A stretch of DNA of 64,000 nt from Escherichia coli (GTDB lineage: Bacteria > Pseudomonadota > Gammaproteobacteria > Enterobacterales > Enterobacteriaceae), in NCBI RefSeq assembly GCF_003334255.1, contig NZ_QOWU01000001.1. One strand, given 5' to 3'. The translations under genes were made by a program, and so were the position numbers. Each line of letters starts with the position of its first letter. Positions within the stretch are counted from its first letter, which is position 1. Shown one piece after another: positions 12,331 through 29,295 of this stretch. The notes beneath the pieces are model-generated. The model was not told the origin of the DNA, did not search any database, and saw only the letters and a program-made list of their open reading frames with translations.

Positions 12331-12357
12331 AACCCGCGCCATTGCGCGGGTTTTTTT
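12331..12357 (+). terminator. leu attenuator intrinsic terminator
   Basis: AAAAACCCGCGCC ATTG CGCGGGTTTTTTT: GC-rich stem plus T7, 23 bp after the leuL stop and 44 bp before leuA. Confidence 0.88.
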
Positions 12358-12400
12358 ATGCCCGAAGCGAGGCGCTCTAAAAGAGACAAGGACCCAAACC

Positions 12401-15063
<2,663 letters not shown>

Positions 15064-15065
15064 TC

Positions 15066-17082
<2,017 letters not shown>

Positions 17083-17089
17083 TCCCCTT

Positions 17090-17117
17090 GCCCGGTCAAA
17101 TGACCGGGCTTTCCGCT
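17090..17117 (+). terminator. leu operon terminator-like hairpin between convergent leuD and setA
   Basis: GCCCGGTCA AA TGACCGGGC followed by TTTCCGCT; weak U-tract. Confidence 0.5.
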
Positions 17118-17130
17118 ATCGTCCACGTCA

Positions 17131-18309
17131 TCAAACGTCTTTAACCTTTGCGGTTAAAAATAATGCGACAACAGAAATAACCGCAATTACCCAGTAGACA
17201 GCAAAGTGCCCCCAACTTTGTGCAATTGCTCCCTGAATAACGCCAGCCAGAATTACCCCGGTAGAAATACTGTTAGTAAATAAGGTGGTAGCTGCCCCCG
17301 CTCTTCCAGGCATTAAATCCTGAAACCATAGCATCCCAATACCCGCAACAATGCCGATAAATACAGCGTTAAAAAGTTGCAGCGTCATCAACGCCATACG
17401 GCTATTAAAGAAAATCAATCCGGTGTAAAACAGTACTCCTGCCGCCACTGCTATGACCATCATTCGCCGCTTACCATAACGTTTGACATAGTAGCCAGCC
17501 AGAATCATTGCTGGTATTTCCAGTCCAGCTGCCGTCCCCATCAGGAAACCCGCCAGTTTGTCTGGCAATCCTAACTCGCTACTGATCCACAACGGCATAT
17601 CAATAATGTACATGGTGTTGCAGGTCCACATTAACGTCGAGGCGACAAATAACATCCGTACGTTACTATCCTGCCAGCCACCTTGCATTGATAAAGCATT
17701 TTCCGACGGCAGTTCTACCCGCGCCACAGACGGAAGCATAAATGCAATCAATACCAGACTGAGTGTGAATATCCCGGCGGCAATCGAAAACATCACCGTA
17801 AAGCCGTAATTCAACGCCAGCATAAAGGCCAACGGTGGACCGATAACCCATGCCAGAGAAAGCTGCGCACGCATCACCGAGCTAAACATCACCACTTCTC
17901 GCGCCGAGTTATCCGCATATTCCCGCGCCAGAGCAAATAACTGTGGCATTGCCGTATTGGCCAGAGATGCCAGAAGCACACCACAGGTGATAAGCGTCAG
18001 ATAATGACGATTAAATGCAAACAATAGCGCATTGCCGATAGCCATCAAACAGCAAAATATAATCAGTTTTCGCCGATCGCCCTGACTGTCAGAACGTTTT
18101 GCCAACCAGAGGCTTACGCCGATCCCAGCAATAGCATTCACCGTATAAAAGAGGCCGATCCAGAAAGGTTGCGCGCCAACCTCACGACTCAGAAATAAGC
18201 TCAATGTAGGAGCCTGTAGCGCCCCGGCCACCCCCATCATAAAAGCGACCAGCATAAATGCCGCGTAAACACCGTTCATACGGCGAGCCATCGTCATTAT
18301 CCAGATCAT
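17131..18309 (-). CDS. setA: Sugar efflux MFS transporter SetA
   Basis: ORF track 392 aa MIWIMTMARRMNGVYAAF..., multi-TM MFS; immediately downstream of sgrS. Confidence 0.95.
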   Translation of the reverse strand: MIWIMTMARRMNGVYAAFMLVAFMMGVAGALQAPTLSLFLSREVGAQPFWIGLFYTVNAIAGIGVSLWLAKRSDSQGDRRKLIIFCCLMAIGNALLFAFNRHYLTLITCGVLLASLANTAMPQLFALAREYADNSAREVVMFSSVMRAQLSLAWVIGPPLAFMLALNYGFTVMFSIAAGIFTLSLVLIAFMLPSVARVELPSENALSMQGGWQDSNVRMLFVASTLMWTCNTMYIIDMPLWISSELGLPDKLAGFLMGTAAGLEIPAMILAGYYVKRYGKRRMMVIAVAAGVLFYTGLIFFNSRMALMTLQLFNAVFIGIVAGIGMLWFQDLMPGRAGAATTLFTNSISTGVILAGVIQGAIAQSWGHFAVYWVIAVISVVALFLTAKVKDV

Positions 18310-18336
18310 ACGTTCCCTTTTTAGCGCGGCGAGAAT

Positions 18337-18563
18337 AAAAAAAACCAGCAGGTATAATCTGCTGGCGGGTGATTTTACACCAATACTCAGTCACACATGA
18401 TGCAGGCAAGTCAACTTTCAGAATTGCGGTCATCCCACTGCATCAGTCCTTCAAGCATGGTTAATCGTTGTGGGACGCTTAACCAACGCAACCAGCACAA
18501 CTTCGCTGTCGCGGTAAAATAGTGCTGATAAAACTGACGCATGGGGCACCCCCTTGCTTCATC
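18337..18563 (-). ncRNA. sgrS: Glucose-phosphate stress small RNA SgrS (dual-function)
   Basis: Minus strand reads GATGAAGCAAGGGGGTGCCCCATGCGTCAG... from 18563 and ends in the hairpin CCAGCAGG...CCTGCTGG plus T8 (plus-strand A8 at 18337-18344); 227 nt; divergent from sgrR. Confidence 0.9.
18411..18542 (-). CDS. sgrT: Small protein SgrT encoded within SgrS
   Basis: The last 43 codons of ORF-track ORF 18411..18710 read MRQFYQHYFTATAKLCWLRWLSVPQRLTMLEGLMQWDDRNSES; ATG at 18540-18542. Confidence 0.85.
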   Translation of the reverse strand: MRQFYQHYFTATAKLCWLRWLSVPQRLTMLEGLMQWDDRNSES

Positions 18564-18630
18564 GTTAGGAATTATTGACTTAATATAGGGAAAATAAAAT
18601 TGCTGTCTTTTGCACAGGAGTTCCCCTTTT

Positions 18631-20286
18631 ATGCCATCTGCTCGTCTGCAACAACAGTTCATCCGCCTGTGGCAATGCTGCGAGGGTAAATCGCAGGACA
18701 CAACGCTCAACGAACTGGCAGCGTTATTGAGCTGCTCGCGTCGTCATATGCGCACCCTGCTCAACACCATGCAGGATCGCGGCTGGCTGACGTGGGAAGC
18801 GGAAGTCGGGCGCGGTAAACGCTCGCGTCTGACATTCCTCTATACCGGGCTGGCGCTTCAGCAACAGCGGGCGGAAGACCTGCTGGAGCAGGATCGTATC
18901 GATCAACTGGTGCAGTTGGTTGGCGACAAAGCGACTGTGCGGCAAATGCTGGTTTCTCATCTGGGCCGCAGCTTCCGCCAGGGGCGGCACATCCTGCGCG
19001 TGCTCTACTATCGTCCGTTGCGTAATCTGCTACCTGGCAGCGCATTGCGCCGTTCCGAAACCCATATCGCCCGGCAAATCTTCAGTTCGCTAACGCGCAT
19101 AAATGAGGAAAATGGGGAACTGGAAGCAGACATCGCCCACCACTGGCAGCAAATTTCACCGCTTCACTGGCGTTTCTTTTTGCGTCCAGGAGTCCATTTT
19201 CACCATGGTCGTGAACTGGAAATGGACGATGTGATCGCCTCTTTAAAACGAATCAATACGCTGCCGCTCTATTCGCATATTGCTGACATTGTGTCGCCGA
19301 CGCCCTGGACGCTGGATATCCATCTCACGCAACCGGACCGCTGGTTACCGTTACTGCTGGGGCAAGTTCCGGCGATGATCCTGCCGCGCGAATGGGAAAC
19401 CCTCAGTAACTTTGCCAGCCATCCCATCGGCACCGGTCCGTATGCGGTGATTCGCAACAGCACCAATCAACTGAAAATTCAGGCATTCGATGACTTCTTC
19501 GGTTACCGGGCATTAATCGACGAAGTTAACGTCTGGGTTCTGCCGGAAATTGCCGACGAGCCAGCCGGAGGGCTGATGCTAAAAGGTCCACAGGGCGAGG
19601 AAAAAGAGATTGAAAGCCGCCTGGAGGAAGGTTGCTACTATTTACTGTTCGACAGCCGCACCCATCGCGGGGCGAATCAGCAAGTCAGGGACTGGGTAAG
19701 CTATGTGCTTTCTCCAACTAATCTGGTCTATTTCGCTGAGGAACAGTACCAGCAACTGTGGTTCCCGGCTTATGGACTGCTCCCCCGTTGGCACCATGCC
19801 CGCACCATAAAGAGCGAAAAACCGGCTGGCCTGGAAAGCCTCACCCTAACCTTTTATCAGGATCACAGTGAGCATCGGGTGATTGCCGGGATCATGCAGC
19901 AGATTCTGGCAAGTCACCAGGTCACGCTGAAAATCAAAGAGATCGACTACGATCAGTGGCATACAGGAGAGATCGAAAGTGATATCTGGCTAAACAGCGC
20001 CAACTTTACCCTGCCGCTGGACTTCTCTGTTTTCGCACATTTATGCGAAGTGCCACTGCTACAACATTGCATTCCCATTGACTGGCAAGCCGACGCTGCT
20101 CGCTGGCGCAATGGCGAGATGAATCTGGCGAACTGGTGCCAGCAACTGGTCGCCAGCAAAGCGATGGTGCCATTATTGCACCACTGGCTGATCATTCAGG
20201 GGCAACGCAGTATGCGCGGCCTGCGCATGAATACCCTCGGCTGGTTCGATTTTAAATCAGCGTGGTTTGCGCCACCGGATCCATGA
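18631..20286 (+). CDS. sgrR: Transcriptional activator SgrR
   Basis: ORF track ORF begins at TTG 18610; canonical ATG at 18631 ([15 protein letters not shown], 551 aa); N-terminal wHTH plus solute-binding-like C domain. Confidence 0.94.
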
Positions 20287-20317
20287 TTGCTGGTTGATAA
20301 CAAAATCACTACACTAA

Positions 20318-20414
20318 CGCCGTTCTCAACGGGGTGCCACGCGTACGCGTGCGCTGAGAAAATACCCGTCGAACCTGATCCGGATAACGCCGGCGAAGGG
20401 ATTTGAGGCTCCTT
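20318..20414 (+). promoter_or_regulatory. TPP riboswitch (thi-box) in the thiB leader
   Basis: GGGGTGCC (20331-20338) ... CTGAGA ... ACCC ... AACCTGATC ... GGATAACGCCGGCGAAGGGA: the conserved thi-box elements in the correct order, about 40 nt upstream of the thiB start. Confidence 0.85.
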
Positions 20415-20449
20415 CTCAAGTCCTTTGCCACTCTTTTTTGAGGTGCAAA

Positions 20450-21433
20450 GTGTTAAAAAAATGTCTGCCCCTGCTGTTGCTGTGCACAGCGCCCGTTTTC
20501 GCTAAACCCGTTCTGACTGTTTATACCTACGATTCCTTCGCCGCCGACTGGGGGCCTGGTCCGGTGGTTAAAAAAGCCTTTGAAGCCGACTGTAATTGCG
20601 AACTGAAACTGGTGGCGCTGGAAGATGGCGTTTCGCTTCTCAACCGTCTACGGATGGAAGGCAAAAACAGTAAAGCCGATGTGGTGCTGGGGCTGGATAA
20701 CAACCTGTTAGACGCCGCCAGTAAAACCGGACTGTTTGCCAAAAGCGGTGTGGCAGCGGATGCCGTTAACGTTCCCGGCGGCTGGAATAATGACACTTTC
20801 GTACCGTTTGATTATGGCTACTTCGCCTTCGTTTATGACAAGAACAAACTGAAAAACCCGCCACAAAGCCTGAAAGAACTGGTTGAGAGCGATCAAAACT
20901 GGCGGGTGATTTATCAGGATCCGCGCACCAGTACACCGGGGCTGGGTCTGTTGCTATGGATGCAAAAAGTCTATGGCGATGACGCCCCACAAGCCTGGCA
21001 GAAACTGGCGAAGAAAACGGTCACGGTCACCAAAGGCTGGAGCGAAGCCTACGGCCTGTTTTTAAAAGGTGAAAGCGATCTGGTACTGAGTTACACCACC
21101 TCTCCGGCTTATCACATTCTCGAAGAGAAGAAAGATAACTACGCCGCCGCGAACTTCAGCGAAGGTCACTATCTGCAAGTGGAAGTCGCCGCCCGCACCG
21201 CTGCCAGCAAGCAGCCGGAGCTGGCGCAAAAATTCCTCCAGTTTATGGTTTCTCCGGCTTTCCAGAATGCGATCCCAACCGGCAACTGGATGTATCCGGT
21301 GGCAAACGTCACGCTGCCTGCCGGTTTTGAAAAATTGACCAAACCCGCAACCACGTTGGAGTTCACGCCAGCCGAAGTGGCGGCACAACGTCAGGCATGG
21401 ATTAGCGAATGGCAACGCGCCGTCAGCCGTTAA
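20450..21433 (+). CDS. thiB: Thiamine ABC transporter periplasmic binding protein ThiB (TbpA)
   Basis: ORF track ORF begins at TTG 20438; canonical GTG at 20450 (MLKKCLPLLLLCTAPVFA signal peptide, 327 aa). Confidence 0.94.
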   Translation: MLKKCLPLLLLCTAPVFAKPVLTVYTYDSFAADWGPGPVVKKAFEADCNCELKLVALEDGVSLLNRLRMEGKNSKADVVLGLDNNLLDAASKTGLFAKSGVAADAVNVPGGWNNDTFVPFDYGYFAFVYDKNKLKNPPQSLKELVESDQNWRVIYQDPRTSTPGLGLLLWMQKVYGDDAPQAWQKLAKKTVTVTKGWSEAYGLFLKGESDLVLSYTTSPAYHILEEKKDNYAAANFSEGHYLQVEVAARTAASKQPELAQKFLQFMVSPAFQNAIPTGNWMYPVANVTLPAGFEKLTKPATTLEFTPAEVAAQRQAWISEWQRAVSR

Positions 21434-23020
21434 TTCCCGGCTGGTTAATTCCAGGTGTAAGCGCCACCACGCTGGTGGTAGCGGTTGCGCTGGCGGCGTT
21501 TCTCGCCCTGTGGTGGAACGCGCCGCAGGATGACTGGGTGGCAGTCTGGCAGGACAGCTATCTGTGGCATGTGGTGCGCTTCTCCTTCTGGCAGGCGTTT
21601 CTCTCGGCACTGCTCTCTGTCATACCCGCGATATTCCTCGCCCGCGCGCTCTATCGCAGGCGCTTTCCGGGTCGGCTGGCGCTGTTGCGTCTGTGTGCAA
21701 TGACCTTGATCCTCCCGGTGTTGGTCGCTGTTTTCGGCATTCTTAGCGTCTATGGTCGCCAGGGCTGGCTGGCAACACTCTGCCAATTCGCTCGGTCTGG
21801 AGTGGACCTTTTCGCCCTACGGCCTGCAAGGTATTTTGCTGGCCCATGTGTTTTTTAATCTGCCGATGGCGAGCCGCTTATTACTCCAGGCACTGGAAAA
21901 CATCCCCGGCGAACAGCGTCAACTTGCCGCCCAGCTTGGGATGCGTAGCTGGCATTTTTTCCGCTTCGTCGAATGGCCGTGGTTACGGCGACAAATCCCG
22001 CCGGTTGCTGCGCTTATCTTTATGCTCTGTTTCGCCAGCTTCGCCACCGTGCTATCGCTGGGGGGCGGTCCGCAGGCGACCACTATCGAGCTGGCAATCT
22101 ATCAGGCGCTGAGTTACGACTACGATCCTGCCCGCGCGGCAATGCTGGCGCTGCTCCAGATGGTGTGCTGCCTCGGGCTGGTGCTGTTGAGTCAGCGATT
22201 GAGTAAGGCCATTGCGCCCGGCACCACGCTGCTGCAAGGCTGGCGCGACCCGGACGATCGTCTGCATAGCCGCATTTGCGACACGGTGTTAATTGTGCTG
22301 GCGCTGCTGCTGTTGCTGCCACCGTTACTGGCGGTGATCGTCGATGGGGTAAATCGCCAGTTGCCGGAAGTGCTGGCACAACCGGTGCTGTGGCAGGCGC
22401 TGTGGACCTCGTTGCGTATTGCGCTGGCGGCAGGTGTATTGTGCGTAGTGCTGACCATGATGCTGCTATGGAGCAGTCGCGAACTGCGGGCGCGGCAGAA
22501 AATGCTGGCGGGTCAGGTGCTGGAGATGAGCGGCATGTTGATCCTCGCCATGCCGGGGATTGTGCTGGCTACCGGCTTCTTTTTACTGCTCAACAACACT
22601 ATCGGCCTGCCACAATCTGCTGACGGCATTGTGATTTTCACCAATGCGTTAATGGCGATCCCTTATGCGCTGAAAGTGCTGGAAAACCCGATGCGCGATA
22701 TCACCGCCCGCTACAGCATGTTATGTCAGTCGCTGGGGATTGAAGGCTGGTCACGCTTAAAAGTGGTGGAGCTGCGCGCCCTGAAACGTCCACTGGCGCA
22801 GGCGCTGGCCTTTGCATGCGTGCTGTCGATTGGTGATTTTGGCGTGGTGGCGTTGTTCGGTAACGATGATTTCCGCACCCTGCCGTTTTATCTCTACCAG
22901 CAAATTGGCTCCTATCGCAGCCAGGACGGTGCGGTCACCGCGTTAATTCTGCTGCTGCTCTGTTTTCTGCTGTTTACCGTGATTGAAAAACTACCGGGGC
23001 GAAATGTTAAAACTGACTGA
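21409..23020 (+). pseudogene. thiP: Thiamine ABC transporter permease ThiP, interrupted by a +1 frameshift at about 21787
   Basis: ORF track splits it into 21409..21858 (149 aa) and 21752..23020 (422 aa) in adjacent frames; 126 codons before plus 411 codons after the junction CAA-T-TCG restore a continuous 536-aa frame if one T is removed. Confidence 0.85.
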
Positions 23021-23702
23021 TATCACCTGGCTTTACCACCATTTGCCGATGCGTTTTAGCTTAACGGTGGAACGCGGCGAGCAGGTGGCGATCCTCGGGC
23101 CAAGCGGCGCGGGTAAAAGTACCCTGCTGAATTTGATCGCCGGTTTTCTGACGCCAGCCAGCGGTTCGCTGACTATCGATGGCGTAGATCACACAACTAT
23201 GCCGCCGTCACGCCGTCCGGTGTCGATGCTGTTTCAGGAGAACAACCTGTTCAGCCACCTGACGGTCGCACAGAACATCGGGCTGGGGCTAAATCCGGGA
23301 TTGAAACTGAACGCGGTACAGCAGGGGAAAATGCACGCTATCGCCCGCCAGATGGGGATTGATAATTTAATGGCGCGGTTACCGGGCGAGCTTTCCGGCG
23401 GTCAGCGACAGCGAGTGGCGTTAGCGCGTTGTCTGGTACGCGAACAGCCGATTTTATTGCTCGATGAACCGTTCTCTGCGCTCGATCCGGCGTTACGTCA
23501 GGAGATGTTGACGCTGGTGAGCACGAGCTGCCAGCAGCAAAAAATGACGCTATTGATGGTGTCGCACAGCGTGGAAGATGCGGCGCGGATCGCCACGCGC
23601 TCGGTAGTAGTCGCCGACGGGCGCATCGCCTGGCAGGGTATGACCAATGAGTTGTTGAGCGGTAAGGCGAGTGCTTCGGCACTATTGGGGATTACGGGTT
23701 AG
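23004..23702 (+). CDS. thiQ: Thiamine ABC transporter ATPase ThiQ
   Basis: ORF track ORF 22983..23702; canonical start [13 protein letters not shown] at 23004 (232 aa); Walker [10 protein letters not shown] and signature LSGGQRQR. Confidence 0.95.
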
Positions 23703-23709
23703 TATGCAC

Positions 23710-23800
<91 letters not shown>

Positions 23801-23815
23801 GCACAAGACTATCTC

Positions 23816-24580
23816 CTAAACCCCAACCACTTTACGCAAAATATCGATATACACCGGCATCAACGGGTGGCGAATTAACACCACCAGCGCCACCACGCCG
23901 ATGGCAGAAATCAACGGCGTCAGCCACAACAAACGACCGCGGGACAAATAATGACTCAAACGGTCAGTCGCTTTACCGCTGCGCCATAACCGCCAGCACA
24001 GCCAGCCACCAACCCACAAAAACACCGCTGTTGCCAGCAGCAACCATTTAAACTCACCGCTCTGCATTCCGGCAGGAATATCGATCGCCGCGCCCGCCAG
24101 AATCCCTGGCAGGAAGTAAAACGGCGGCCACAGCAGGCAGCCGATAATATTCGGCGTAATAAATTTAGCCACCGGCAGATCCAGCATTCCCGCCACCATT
24201 GGCACCAGCGGACGCGTCGGGCCAACAAAACGACCGACCAGAATGGTGAACATGCTGTGTTGATGCAACGCATGTTCAGTTTTATCAAGTAGTGCTTTGT
24301 TTTTCTTCAGAAATGACCAGCGATGCAACGGCTTTTTAAAACGCCAACCCAGCCAGAAAGAAATCCAGTCGCCCATCAAGCAGCCAATAATCCCTGCCAG
24401 CCAGGCGTGCCAGAAACTTAACTCGCCGCTGCCAATCAGCGCTCCCAGCCCCGCCATCAGCACCGTACCGGGTAGAATCAAACCGACCAGCGCCAGCGAC
24501 TCCAGAAAGGCCACCAACACCACCGCCATCAATGAATACACGGTGGATTGGGTAATAAAGTGTTCCAGCAATGCTTGCAT
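23816..24580 (-). CDS. yabI: DedA-family inner membrane protein YabI
   Basis: ORF track 254 aa MQALLEHFITQSTVYSLMAVVLVAFLESL..., multi-TM. Confidence 0.92.
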   Translation of the reverse strand: MQALLEHFITQSTVYSLMAVVLVAFLESLALVGLILPGTVLMAGLGALIGSGELSFWHAWLAGIIGCLMGDWISFWLGWRFKKPLHRWSFLKKNKALLDKTEHALHQHSMFTILVGRFVGPTRPLVPMVAGMLDLPVAKFITPNIIGCLLWPPFYFLPGILAGAAIDIPAGMQSGEFKWLLLATAVFLWVGGWLCWRLWRSGKATDRLSHYLSRGRLLWLTPLISAIGVVALVVLIRHPLMPVYIDILRKVVGV

Positions 24581-24665
24581 AATGTGCCTGTCAAATGGAC
24601 GAAGCAGGGATTCTGCAAACCCTATGCTACTCCGTCAAGCCGTCAATTGTCTGATTCGTTACCAA

Positions 24666-25544
24666 TTATGACAACTTGACGGCTACATCATTCACTTTTT
24701 CTTCACAACCGGCACGAAACTCGCTCGGGCTGGCCCCGGTGCATTTTTTAAATACTCGCGAGAAATAGAGTTGATCGTCAAAACCAACATTGCGACCGAC
24801 GGTGGCGATAGGCATCCGGGTAGTGCTCAAAAGCAGCTTCGCCTGACTAATGCGTTGGTCCTCGCGCCAGCTTAAGACGCTAATCCCTAACTGCTGGCGG
24901 AAAAGATGTGACAGACGCGACGGCGACAAGCAAACATGCTGTGCGACGCTGGCGATATCAAAATTGCTGTCTGCCAGGTGATCGCTGATGTACTGACAAG
25001 CCTCGCGTACCCGATTATCCATCGGTGGATGGAGCGACTCGTTAATCGCTTCCATGCGCCGCAGTAACAATTGCTCAAGCAGATTTATCGCCAGCAGCTC
25101 CGAATAGCGCCCTTCCCCTTGCCCGGCGTTAATGATTTGCCCAAACAGGTCGCTGAAATGCGGCTGGTGCGCTTCATCCGGGCGAAAGAAACCCGTATTG
25201 GCAAATATTGACGGCCAGTTAAGCCATTCATGCCAGTAGGCGCGCGGACGAAAGTAAACCCACTGGTGATACCATTCGCGAGCCTCCGGATGACGACCGT
25301 AGTGATGAATCTCTCCTGGCGGGAACAGCAAAATATCACCCGGTCGGCAGACAAATTCTCGTCCCTGATTTTTCACCACCCCCTGACCGCGAATGGTGAG
25401 ATTGAGAATATAACCTTTCATTCCCAGCGGTCGGTCGATAAAAAAATCGAGATAACCGTTGGCCTCAATCGGCGTTAAACCCGCCACCAGATGGGCGTTA
25501 AACGAGTATCCCGGCAGCAGGGGATCATTTTGCGCTTCAGCCAT
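24666..25544 (-). CDS. araC: Arabinose operon regulator AraC
   Basis: ORF track ORF 24666..25595; canonical start [22 protein letters not shown] at 25542-25544 (292 aa). Confidence 0.96.
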
Positions 25545-27583
<2,039 letters not shown>

Positions 27584-27593
27584 GGACACGATA

Positions 27594-29096
27594 ATGACGA
27601 TTTTTGATAATTATGAAGTGTGGTTTGTCATTGGCAGCCAGCATCTGTATGGCCCGGAAACCCTGCGTCAGGTCACCCAACATGCCGAGCACGTCGTTAA
27701 TGCGCTGAATACGGAAGCGAAACTGCCCTGCAAACTGGTGTTGAAACCGCTGGGCACCACGCCGGATGAAATCACCGCTATTTGCCGCGACGCGAATTAC
27801 GACGATCGTTGCGCTGGTCTGGTGGTGTGGCTGCACACCTTCTCCCCGGCCAAAATGTGGATCAACGGCCTGACCATGCTCAACAAACCGTTGCTGCAAT
27901 TCCACACCCAGTTCAACGCGGCGCTGCCGTGGGACAGTATCGATATGGACTTTATGAACCTGAACCAGACTGCACATGGCGGTCGCGAGTTCGGCTTCAT
28001 TGGCGCGCGTATGCGTCAGCAACATGCCGTGGTTACCGGTCACTGGCAGGATAAACAAGCCCATGAGCGTATCGGCTCCTGGATGCGTCAGGCGGTCTCT
28101 AAACAGGATACCCGTCATCTGAAAGTCTGCCGATTTGGCGATAACATGCGTGAAGTGGCGGTCACCGATGGCGATAAAGTTGCCGCACAGATCAAGTTCG
28201 GTTTCTCCGTCAATACCTGGGCGGTTGGCGATCTGGTGCAGGTGGTGAACTCCATCAGCGACGGCGATGTTAACGCGCTGGTCGATGAGTACGAAAGCTG
28301 CTACACCATGACGCCTGCCACACAAATCCACGGCAAAAAACGACAGAACGTGCTGGAAGCGGCGCGTATTGAGCTGGGGATGAAGCGTTTCCTGGAACAA
28401 GGTGGCTTCCACGCGTTCACCACCACCTTTGAAGATTTGCACGGTCTGAAACAGCTTCCTGGTCTGGCCGTACAGCGTCTGATGCAGCAGGGTTACGGCT
28501 TTGCGGGCGAAGGCGACTGGAAAACTGCCGCCCTGCTTCGCATCATGAAGGTGATGTCAACCGGTCTGCAGGGCGGCACCTCCTTTATGGAGGACTACAC
28601 CTATCACTTCGAGAAAGGTAATGACCTGGTGCTCGGCTCCCATATGCTGGAAGTCTGCCCGTCGATCGCCGCAGAAGAGAAACCGATCCTCGACGTTCAG
28701 CATCTCGGTATTGGTGGTAAGGACGATCCTGCCCGCCTGATCTTCAATACCCAAACCGGCCCAGCGATTGTCGCCAGCTTGATTGATCTCGGCGATCGTT
28801 ACCGTCTACTGGTTAACTGCATCGACACGGTGAAAACACCGCACTCCCTGCCGAAACTGCCGGTGGCGAATGCGCTGTGGAAAGCGCAACCGGATCTGCC
28901 AACTGCTTCCGAAGCGTGGATCCTCGCTGGTGGCGCGCACCATACCGTCTTCAGCCATGCACTGAACCTCAACGATATGCGCCAATTCGCCGAGATGCAC
29001 GACATTGAAATCACGGTGATTGATAACGACACACGCCTGCCAGCGTTTAAAGACGCGCTGCGCTGGAACGAAGTGTATTACGGGTTTCGTCGCTAA
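27594..29096 (+). CDS. araA: L-arabinose isomerase AraA
   Basis: ORF track ORF 27570..29096; canonical start [20 protein letters not shown] at 27594 (500 aa). Confidence 0.96.
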
Positions 29097-29098
29097 GT

Positions 29099-29285
29099 AG
29101 CCGCATCCGGTATGTAACGCCTGATGCGACGCTGACGCGTCTTATCTGGCCTACACGCTGCGATTTTGTAGGCCGGATAAGCAAAGCGCATCCGGCATTC
29201 AACGCCTGATGCGACGCTGGCGCGTCTTATCAGGCCTACACGCTGCGATTTTGTAGGCCGGATAAGCAAAGCGCATCCGGCACGA
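29099..29285. repeat. REP/BIME array: about 2.3 tandem copies of an 85-bp unit between araA and araD
   Basis: CGCCTGATGCGACGCTG...GTAGGCCGGATAAGCAAAGCGCATCCGGCA begins at 29118 and again at 29203 (period 85), with a partial copy at 29099-29117. Confidence 0.85.
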
Positions 29286-29295
29286 AGGAGTCAAC

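Follow-up and report, generated by a model that had tools for sequence, protein, structure and literature searches.

The thiBPQ operon and the reading frame of thiP

The window (i.e., the whole 64-kb stretch of DNA analysed here) is a segment of the Escherichia coli chromosome that runs from murF through leu, sgrR, thiBPQ and ara to carB. On its plus strand, the thiB leader carries an intact TPP (THI-box) riboswitch at 20320..20419, which matches the full Rfam model RF00059 with 65.9 bits against a gathering score of 54.3. The riboswitch is annotated in the same place in strain G1/2 and in K-12 MG1655, and its sequence is the same as in G1/2. It is followed by thiB (20450..21433, plus strand), which encodes the periplasmic thiamine-binding subunit and forms an open ORF; its annotation was transferred from G1/2 (locus positions 20736-21719, minus 286). 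The thiP gene, which encodes the ABC permease subunit, occupies 21409..23020 on the plus strand, and its start shares 25 nt with the 3' end of thiB. The gene for the ATPase subunit, thiQ (23004..23702, plus strand), was likewise annotated by transfer from G1/2, and its start overlaps the native stop of thiP by 17 nt. Both thiB and thiQ are intact, as the first-pass annotation of this DNA had said, since their DNA is the same as that of the annotated intact G1/2 genes. The order of TPP riboswitch, thiB, thiP and thiQ is the operon context of ThiP, and gene order and gene overlaps are the same as in the thi operon of K-12 MG1655. Just 5' of the operon and divergent from sgrR, the small RNA SgrS is encoded together with sgrT at 18337-18563 on the minus strand (Rfam RF00534, 228.8 bits) and is intact, as expected.

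Within thiP, positions 21784-21790 read CAATTCG. Codons 1-126 end with CAA at 21784-21786, and the TT that follows (21787..21788, plus strand) takes the place of a T that is single in every reference; in the alignment to G1/2 and K-12 MG1655, CCAATCG is replaced by CCAATTCG after codon 126. The gene has 1612 nt instead of 1611, a +1 frameshift, and falls into two ORFs in adjacent frames, 21409..21858 (149 aa) and 21752..23020 (422 aa), which overlap at 21752-21858. As written, thiP encodes 126 native residues followed by 23 out-of-frame residues (FARSGVDLFALRPARYFAGPCVF) and ends with a TAA at 21856..21858 (plus strand), which is the first frame-0 stop; its T is the last base of a T6 run (21851-21856), the codons being GTT TTT TAA. 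When one T is deleted, a 1611-nt ORF of 536 codons plus stop is obtained, with the junction LATLCQ-SLGLEWTFSPYGLQ, and its product is identical at 536 of 536 residues to the ThiP of K-12 MG1655 and G1/2 (WP_000235721.1). In comparison with MG1655 ThiP (YabK, the ThiBPQ permease), the window gene differs by the extra T after codon 126, which cuts its product to 149 aa. A compensating indel was sought across thiP and none was found; the native frame is open to the normal stop at 23018-23020. A single indel relative to both G1/2 and MG1655, a premature stop and the lack of compensation together characterize a frameshift pseudogene. The first-pass annotation had already placed the break at this TT, listed the two ORFs with exactly these limits, proposed the 536-aa protein upon deletion of one T and located the stop after 23 out-of-frame residues, and all of these statements stand. 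Its count of 126 upstream codons is also correct, but the 411 downstream codons that it gave are 410 amino acids plus the stop, a small counting point.

In the native frame, the downstream remnant (21836..23020, plus strand) is started by gene callers at TTG 21836, giving 394 aa, whereas the longest ORF begins at ATG 21752 (422 aa). The 422-aa ORF was not found in a collection of 15 billion proteins; callers prefer TTG 21836. If expressed, this remnant would supply the remaining part of permease domain 1 and the whole of domain 2. Intact ThiP has about twelve hydrophobic segments and, according to Pfam, two BPD_transp_1 domains (residues 74-267 and 369-523). Of these, the 149-aa product retains three hydrophobic segments, the first ones, and approximately 53 of the 194 residues of domain 1 (residues 74-126), i.e., about a quarter; the remainder of domain 1 and all of domain 2 are missing. 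The product read from the thiP start codon does not contain two BPD_transp_1 domains in one chain, and the earlier statement that most of the membrane domain is lost holds.

The same picture emerges from the ThiP equivalog family, NCBIfam NF006953 (TIGR01253), whose cutoff is 970 bits. Over profile positions 1-127, the 149-aa fragment reaches 257 bits; the 422-aa fragment, which aligns to positions 116-536, reaches 921 bits, and the intact (T-deleted) protein obtains 1189 bits over positions 1-536. Since both encoded fragments fall below the cutoff and neither is a full-length, single-polypeptide ThiP, the locus is thiP by descent, yet it encodes no ThiP family member as written.

Origin and distribution of the inserted base

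We searched complete E. coli genomes with a 101-base query centred on the TT site and obtained matches in 5,398 of 5,426. All 5,398 complete RefSeq genomes having this segment carry a single T, and TT was found in none of them, the best identity being 99.0%, with 100 bases of the record aligned to the 101 of the query. Accordingly, none of these genomes holds an intact homologue sharing the TT string in frame, which had been named in advance as the observation that would invalidate the reconstructed junction. A TT-bearing 40-mer had no match in JGI metagenome contigs. Because it is absent from the complete RefSeq genomes and from the JGI metagenome contigs, the TT allele is rare.

Over 24 kb, the closest complete genomes are G1/2, G6/7 and G8, all isolated in Germany from human faeces. 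In a base-by-base comparison over the entire 64 kb, the window differs from G1/2 by four SNPs (15819, leuC G252S; 22087, thiP I226I; 35431, rapA L950L; 38230, djlA N95T), by the copy number of a 15-bp tandem repeat and by the inserted T, which is the sole single-base indel. Between 10737 and 29282, the window differs from K-12 MG1655 by two SNPs and the inserted T, and by nothing else. Given that the nearest genomes are separated from the window by a handful of SNPs and do not have TT, the single T is the ancestral state and the insertion is young.

The allele itself is already in public databases. In the 15-billion-protein collection, the exact 149-aa product occurs as CUJ85844.1 and CAM2963093.1 and in Logan assemblies, and nine contigs encode it. 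Among these nine are CYUC01000003.1 (GCA_001299315.1) and Logan contigs from runs SRR3825894, SRR3951471 and SRR8529115, which are 100% identical to the window, TT included, over 20,450, 12,330, 1,050 and 2,052 bases, respectively. CYUC01000003.1 corresponds to window positions 11409-31858, and no difference exists in the overlap. As assembly in the Logan pipeline is done run by run, TT is backed by several separate read sets, and the lesion is present in independent sequence data as judged on assemblies. These copies support the base call whether several isolates were sequenced or a single culture-collection strain more than once, in the latter case for that strain only.

The first-pass annotation had left it open whether the extra T is an assembly error or a genuine mutation. 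An error, with thiP intact in the organism, would agree with the absence of TT from the complete RefSeq genomes and the JGI metagenome contigs described above, and no assembly error is commoner than the single-base indel; moreover, another public thiP frameshift (GHK09998.1) lies at a G-run, the typical error context. However, a separately submitted NCBI draft assembly has the identical TT, as do three or more sequencing runs, each assembled independently; the change is from T to TT outside any homopolymer, and there is no further single-base indel in 64 kb relative to G1/2. Nor is the assembly indel-ridden, since its comparison with MG1655 at 10737-29282 yielded only the T and two SNPs. We consider an error improbable. 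The comparisons point instead to the mutation side of the alternative, and the extra T is very probably a genuine single-base insertion (a duplicated T) in one E. coli lineage. In sum, thiP in the window is an ordinary, recent and lineage-specific frameshifted pseudogene, and in this lineage it should be marked as one frameshifted pseudogene and not as two genes.

The assembly GCA_001299315.1 was deposited as "Achromobacter sp. ATCC35328" and is really E. coli, and the mislabelling of CYUC01 has been noted (PMC5597208; PMC5405338). Literature searches by accession number returned such mislabelling notes only, and we found no paper describing this thiP allele. The lineage includes this assembly, whose strain is probably ECOR-9. 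This assignment presumes that the ATCC numbers of the ECOR strains run consecutively, in which case ATCC 35328 would be ECOR-9. On that premise, the count can be anchored on ECOR2, which is ATCC 35321 (PMC7657587).

Products of the split gene and thiamine uptake

Ribosomes that start at ATG 21409 translate the 126 native codons and 23 wrong ones before terminating at TAA 21856-21858. With no functional permease, the ThiB-ThiP-ThiQ importer would be unable to assemble, and high-affinity uptake of thiamine, TMP and TPP would be lost. It is probable that thiQ is also expressed at a lower level, as its start, which normally overlaps the thiP stop, is now approximately 1.1 kb past the premature stop; translational coupling would be lost, and Rho-dependent polarity over some 1.1 kb of untranslated mRNA may contribute. 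Overall, loss of high-affinity thiamine salvage is likely in this strain. Given that E. coli synthesizes its own thiamine, a prototroph should tolerate the loss, unless the de novo pathway is also defective. This pathway involves thiCEFSGH and thiMD. According to one source (bioRxiv 10.1101/2021.09.29.462401), no thiamin transporter other than ThiBPQ is known in E. coli, an organism that also has de novo synthesis; in a citation of Webb et al. 1998 (in PMC5749112), ThiBPQ is an experimentally defined periplasmic-binding-protein ABC importer of thiamine and TPP.

Two readings would leave the cell with some permease. The frameshift could be bypassed, either by a +1 slip of tRNA-Phe at GUU-UUU-UAA (21850-21858) or by slippage of RNA polymerase on the T6 run, in which case some full-length ThiP with residues 127-149 replaced would be made and coupling to thiQ would be kept. 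The sequence has one feature of a programmed +1 frameshift site, i.e., a P-site codon capable of re-pairing next to a stop: UUU lies directly 5' of the shifted-frame stop, and after a +1 shift the tRNA re-pairs on UUU and the native frame continues with AAU CUG. We take this site to be formally similar to the CUU-UGA of prfB. The likeness to the +1 site of prfB (RF2) resides in the re-pairable P-site codon before a stop (CUU UGA there, UUU UAA here). Unlike prfB, the thiP site is not preceded by a Shine-Dalgarno-like stimulator, the upstream sequence being GCCCATGTG, and it is not conserved: the arrangement is found in 0 of the 5,398 complete genomes and is an accident of a recent insertion. 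Because the insertion is confined to a single lineage, recoding cannot be what the site evolved for. A rescued protein would, in addition, have 23 wrong residues, several of them charged and with R, D, R and R among them, just before the first conserved cytoplasmic loop and would probably be inactive. As for transcription, six T's are fewer than the run length usually needed for efficient slippage, which makes T6 short for this route. Bypass by either route is, in our judgement, extremely unlikely.

Similarly, the 149-aa N-terminal fragment and a C-terminal fragment reinitiated at ATG 21752, TTG 21836 or ATG 21866 could be active together as a split permease. The overlap of the two ORFs at 21752-21858, an in-frame ATG 8 nt past the premature stop and the 394-aa downstream product predicted by gene callers are compatible with this possibility. 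However, the break falls inside the first BPD_transp_1 domain (74-267) and not between domains, the candidate restarts lack an obvious ribosome-binding site, both fragments are under the ThiP family cutoff, and the single-T sequence is kept in all 5,398 complete genomes. We regard joint activity of two fragments as hardly credible. Both readings were set aside on account of the missing stimulator, the lack of conservation and the unfavourable break point, leaving an inactivated thiP as the preferred explanation.

The main import of this inactivated thiP is for annotation and strain bookkeeping; it raises no new biological question. The transporter gene is well known and dispensable. If the strain is ATCC 35328 (probably ECOR-9), the lesion is relevant to those who use it in studies of vitamin cross-feeding, auxotrophy or TPP riboswitches.

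Other thiP disruptions and variation elsewhere in the window

A look-up of the 394-aa downstream remnant returned 21 contigs, which at first suggested many independent disruptions of thiP. This idea was abandoned, as only three real other lesions were present among the matches listed. Six of the ten matches listed for the remnant come from ENA metagenome scaffolds in which thiP is interrupted by 100-N gaps, in some cases with duplicated flanks, so that gene callers predict the same 394-aa product on them; such gapped scaffolds mimic disruptions and are scaffolding artefacts. In a look-up of the 119-aa fragment, most matches were contigs ending at this point and not stops.

The other lesions are W120* (G to A at window position 21768, SRR20073096), W132* (window position 21804, SRR14160942) and a GGCA duplication near window position 21740 (SRR24416275). 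These isolates resemble the window in that thiP is broken within codons ~110-132 in a phylogroup-A-like background, but they carry other mutations, and their backgrounds are related to that of the window without being identical. The truncated ThiP GHK09998.1 goes out of frame near the G-run at about window position 22062. Of two contigs with other lesions, compared with the window over approximately 12 kb, L018 has 3 further substitutions and L024 has 19, together with one further single-base indel; both lack the leuC SNP that is private to the window lineage. We found no sign of one strain having been disrupted repeatedly, the L018 and L024 lesions being in backgrounds other than that of the window.

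Loss-of-function alleles of thiP arise sporadically. Because the remnant look-up detects only lesions in this short region, and in a collection that holds very many E. coli assemblies, the other lesions are no evidence of a hotspot or of selection. Loss of ThiP could be adaptive, e.g., by blocking the entry of a toxic thiamine analogue or another agent through ThiBPQ, and several independent disruptions of codons ~110-132 (+T, W120*, W132* and +GGCA) in near-identical allele backgrounds would fit such a role. Sporadic neutral loss explains them equally well, and we hold adaptation to be quite unlikely.

Several further differences were seen in the window. Besides the thiP lesion, the window has a second private change 6 kb away, the leuC SNP at 15819 (codon 252, G to A), which is non-synonymous and results in LeuC G252S. 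The base is G in G1/2, in K-12 MG1655 and in two other isolates compared, and a 101-mer with the SNP had no 100% match among 5,336 complete RefSeq E. coli genomes (best identity 99.0%). Contigs with the TT in thiP also have this SNP wherever they cover the position. The djlA change at 38230 (codon 95, N95T relative to G1/2) is the second non-synonymous one among the four SNPs in 64 kb. In the yabP/yabQ region, positions 36711-36837 hold the 15-bp tandem repeat, with consensus GGTAGCACCGTCCGG and 8.5 copies; here the window is approximately 60 bp longer than G1/2 and has several repeat-internal substitutions. In G1/2, yabP is annotated as frameshifted.

Finally, the relatedness of the window to other genomes is mosaic. 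Its araD-polB segment (29102-32752) has 45 mismatches to K-12 MG1655 and matches G1/2. The boundary between MG1655-like and G1/2-like sequence lies at a repeated sequence between araA and araD, at about 29100-29280, which suggests a recombination breakpoint at this position.
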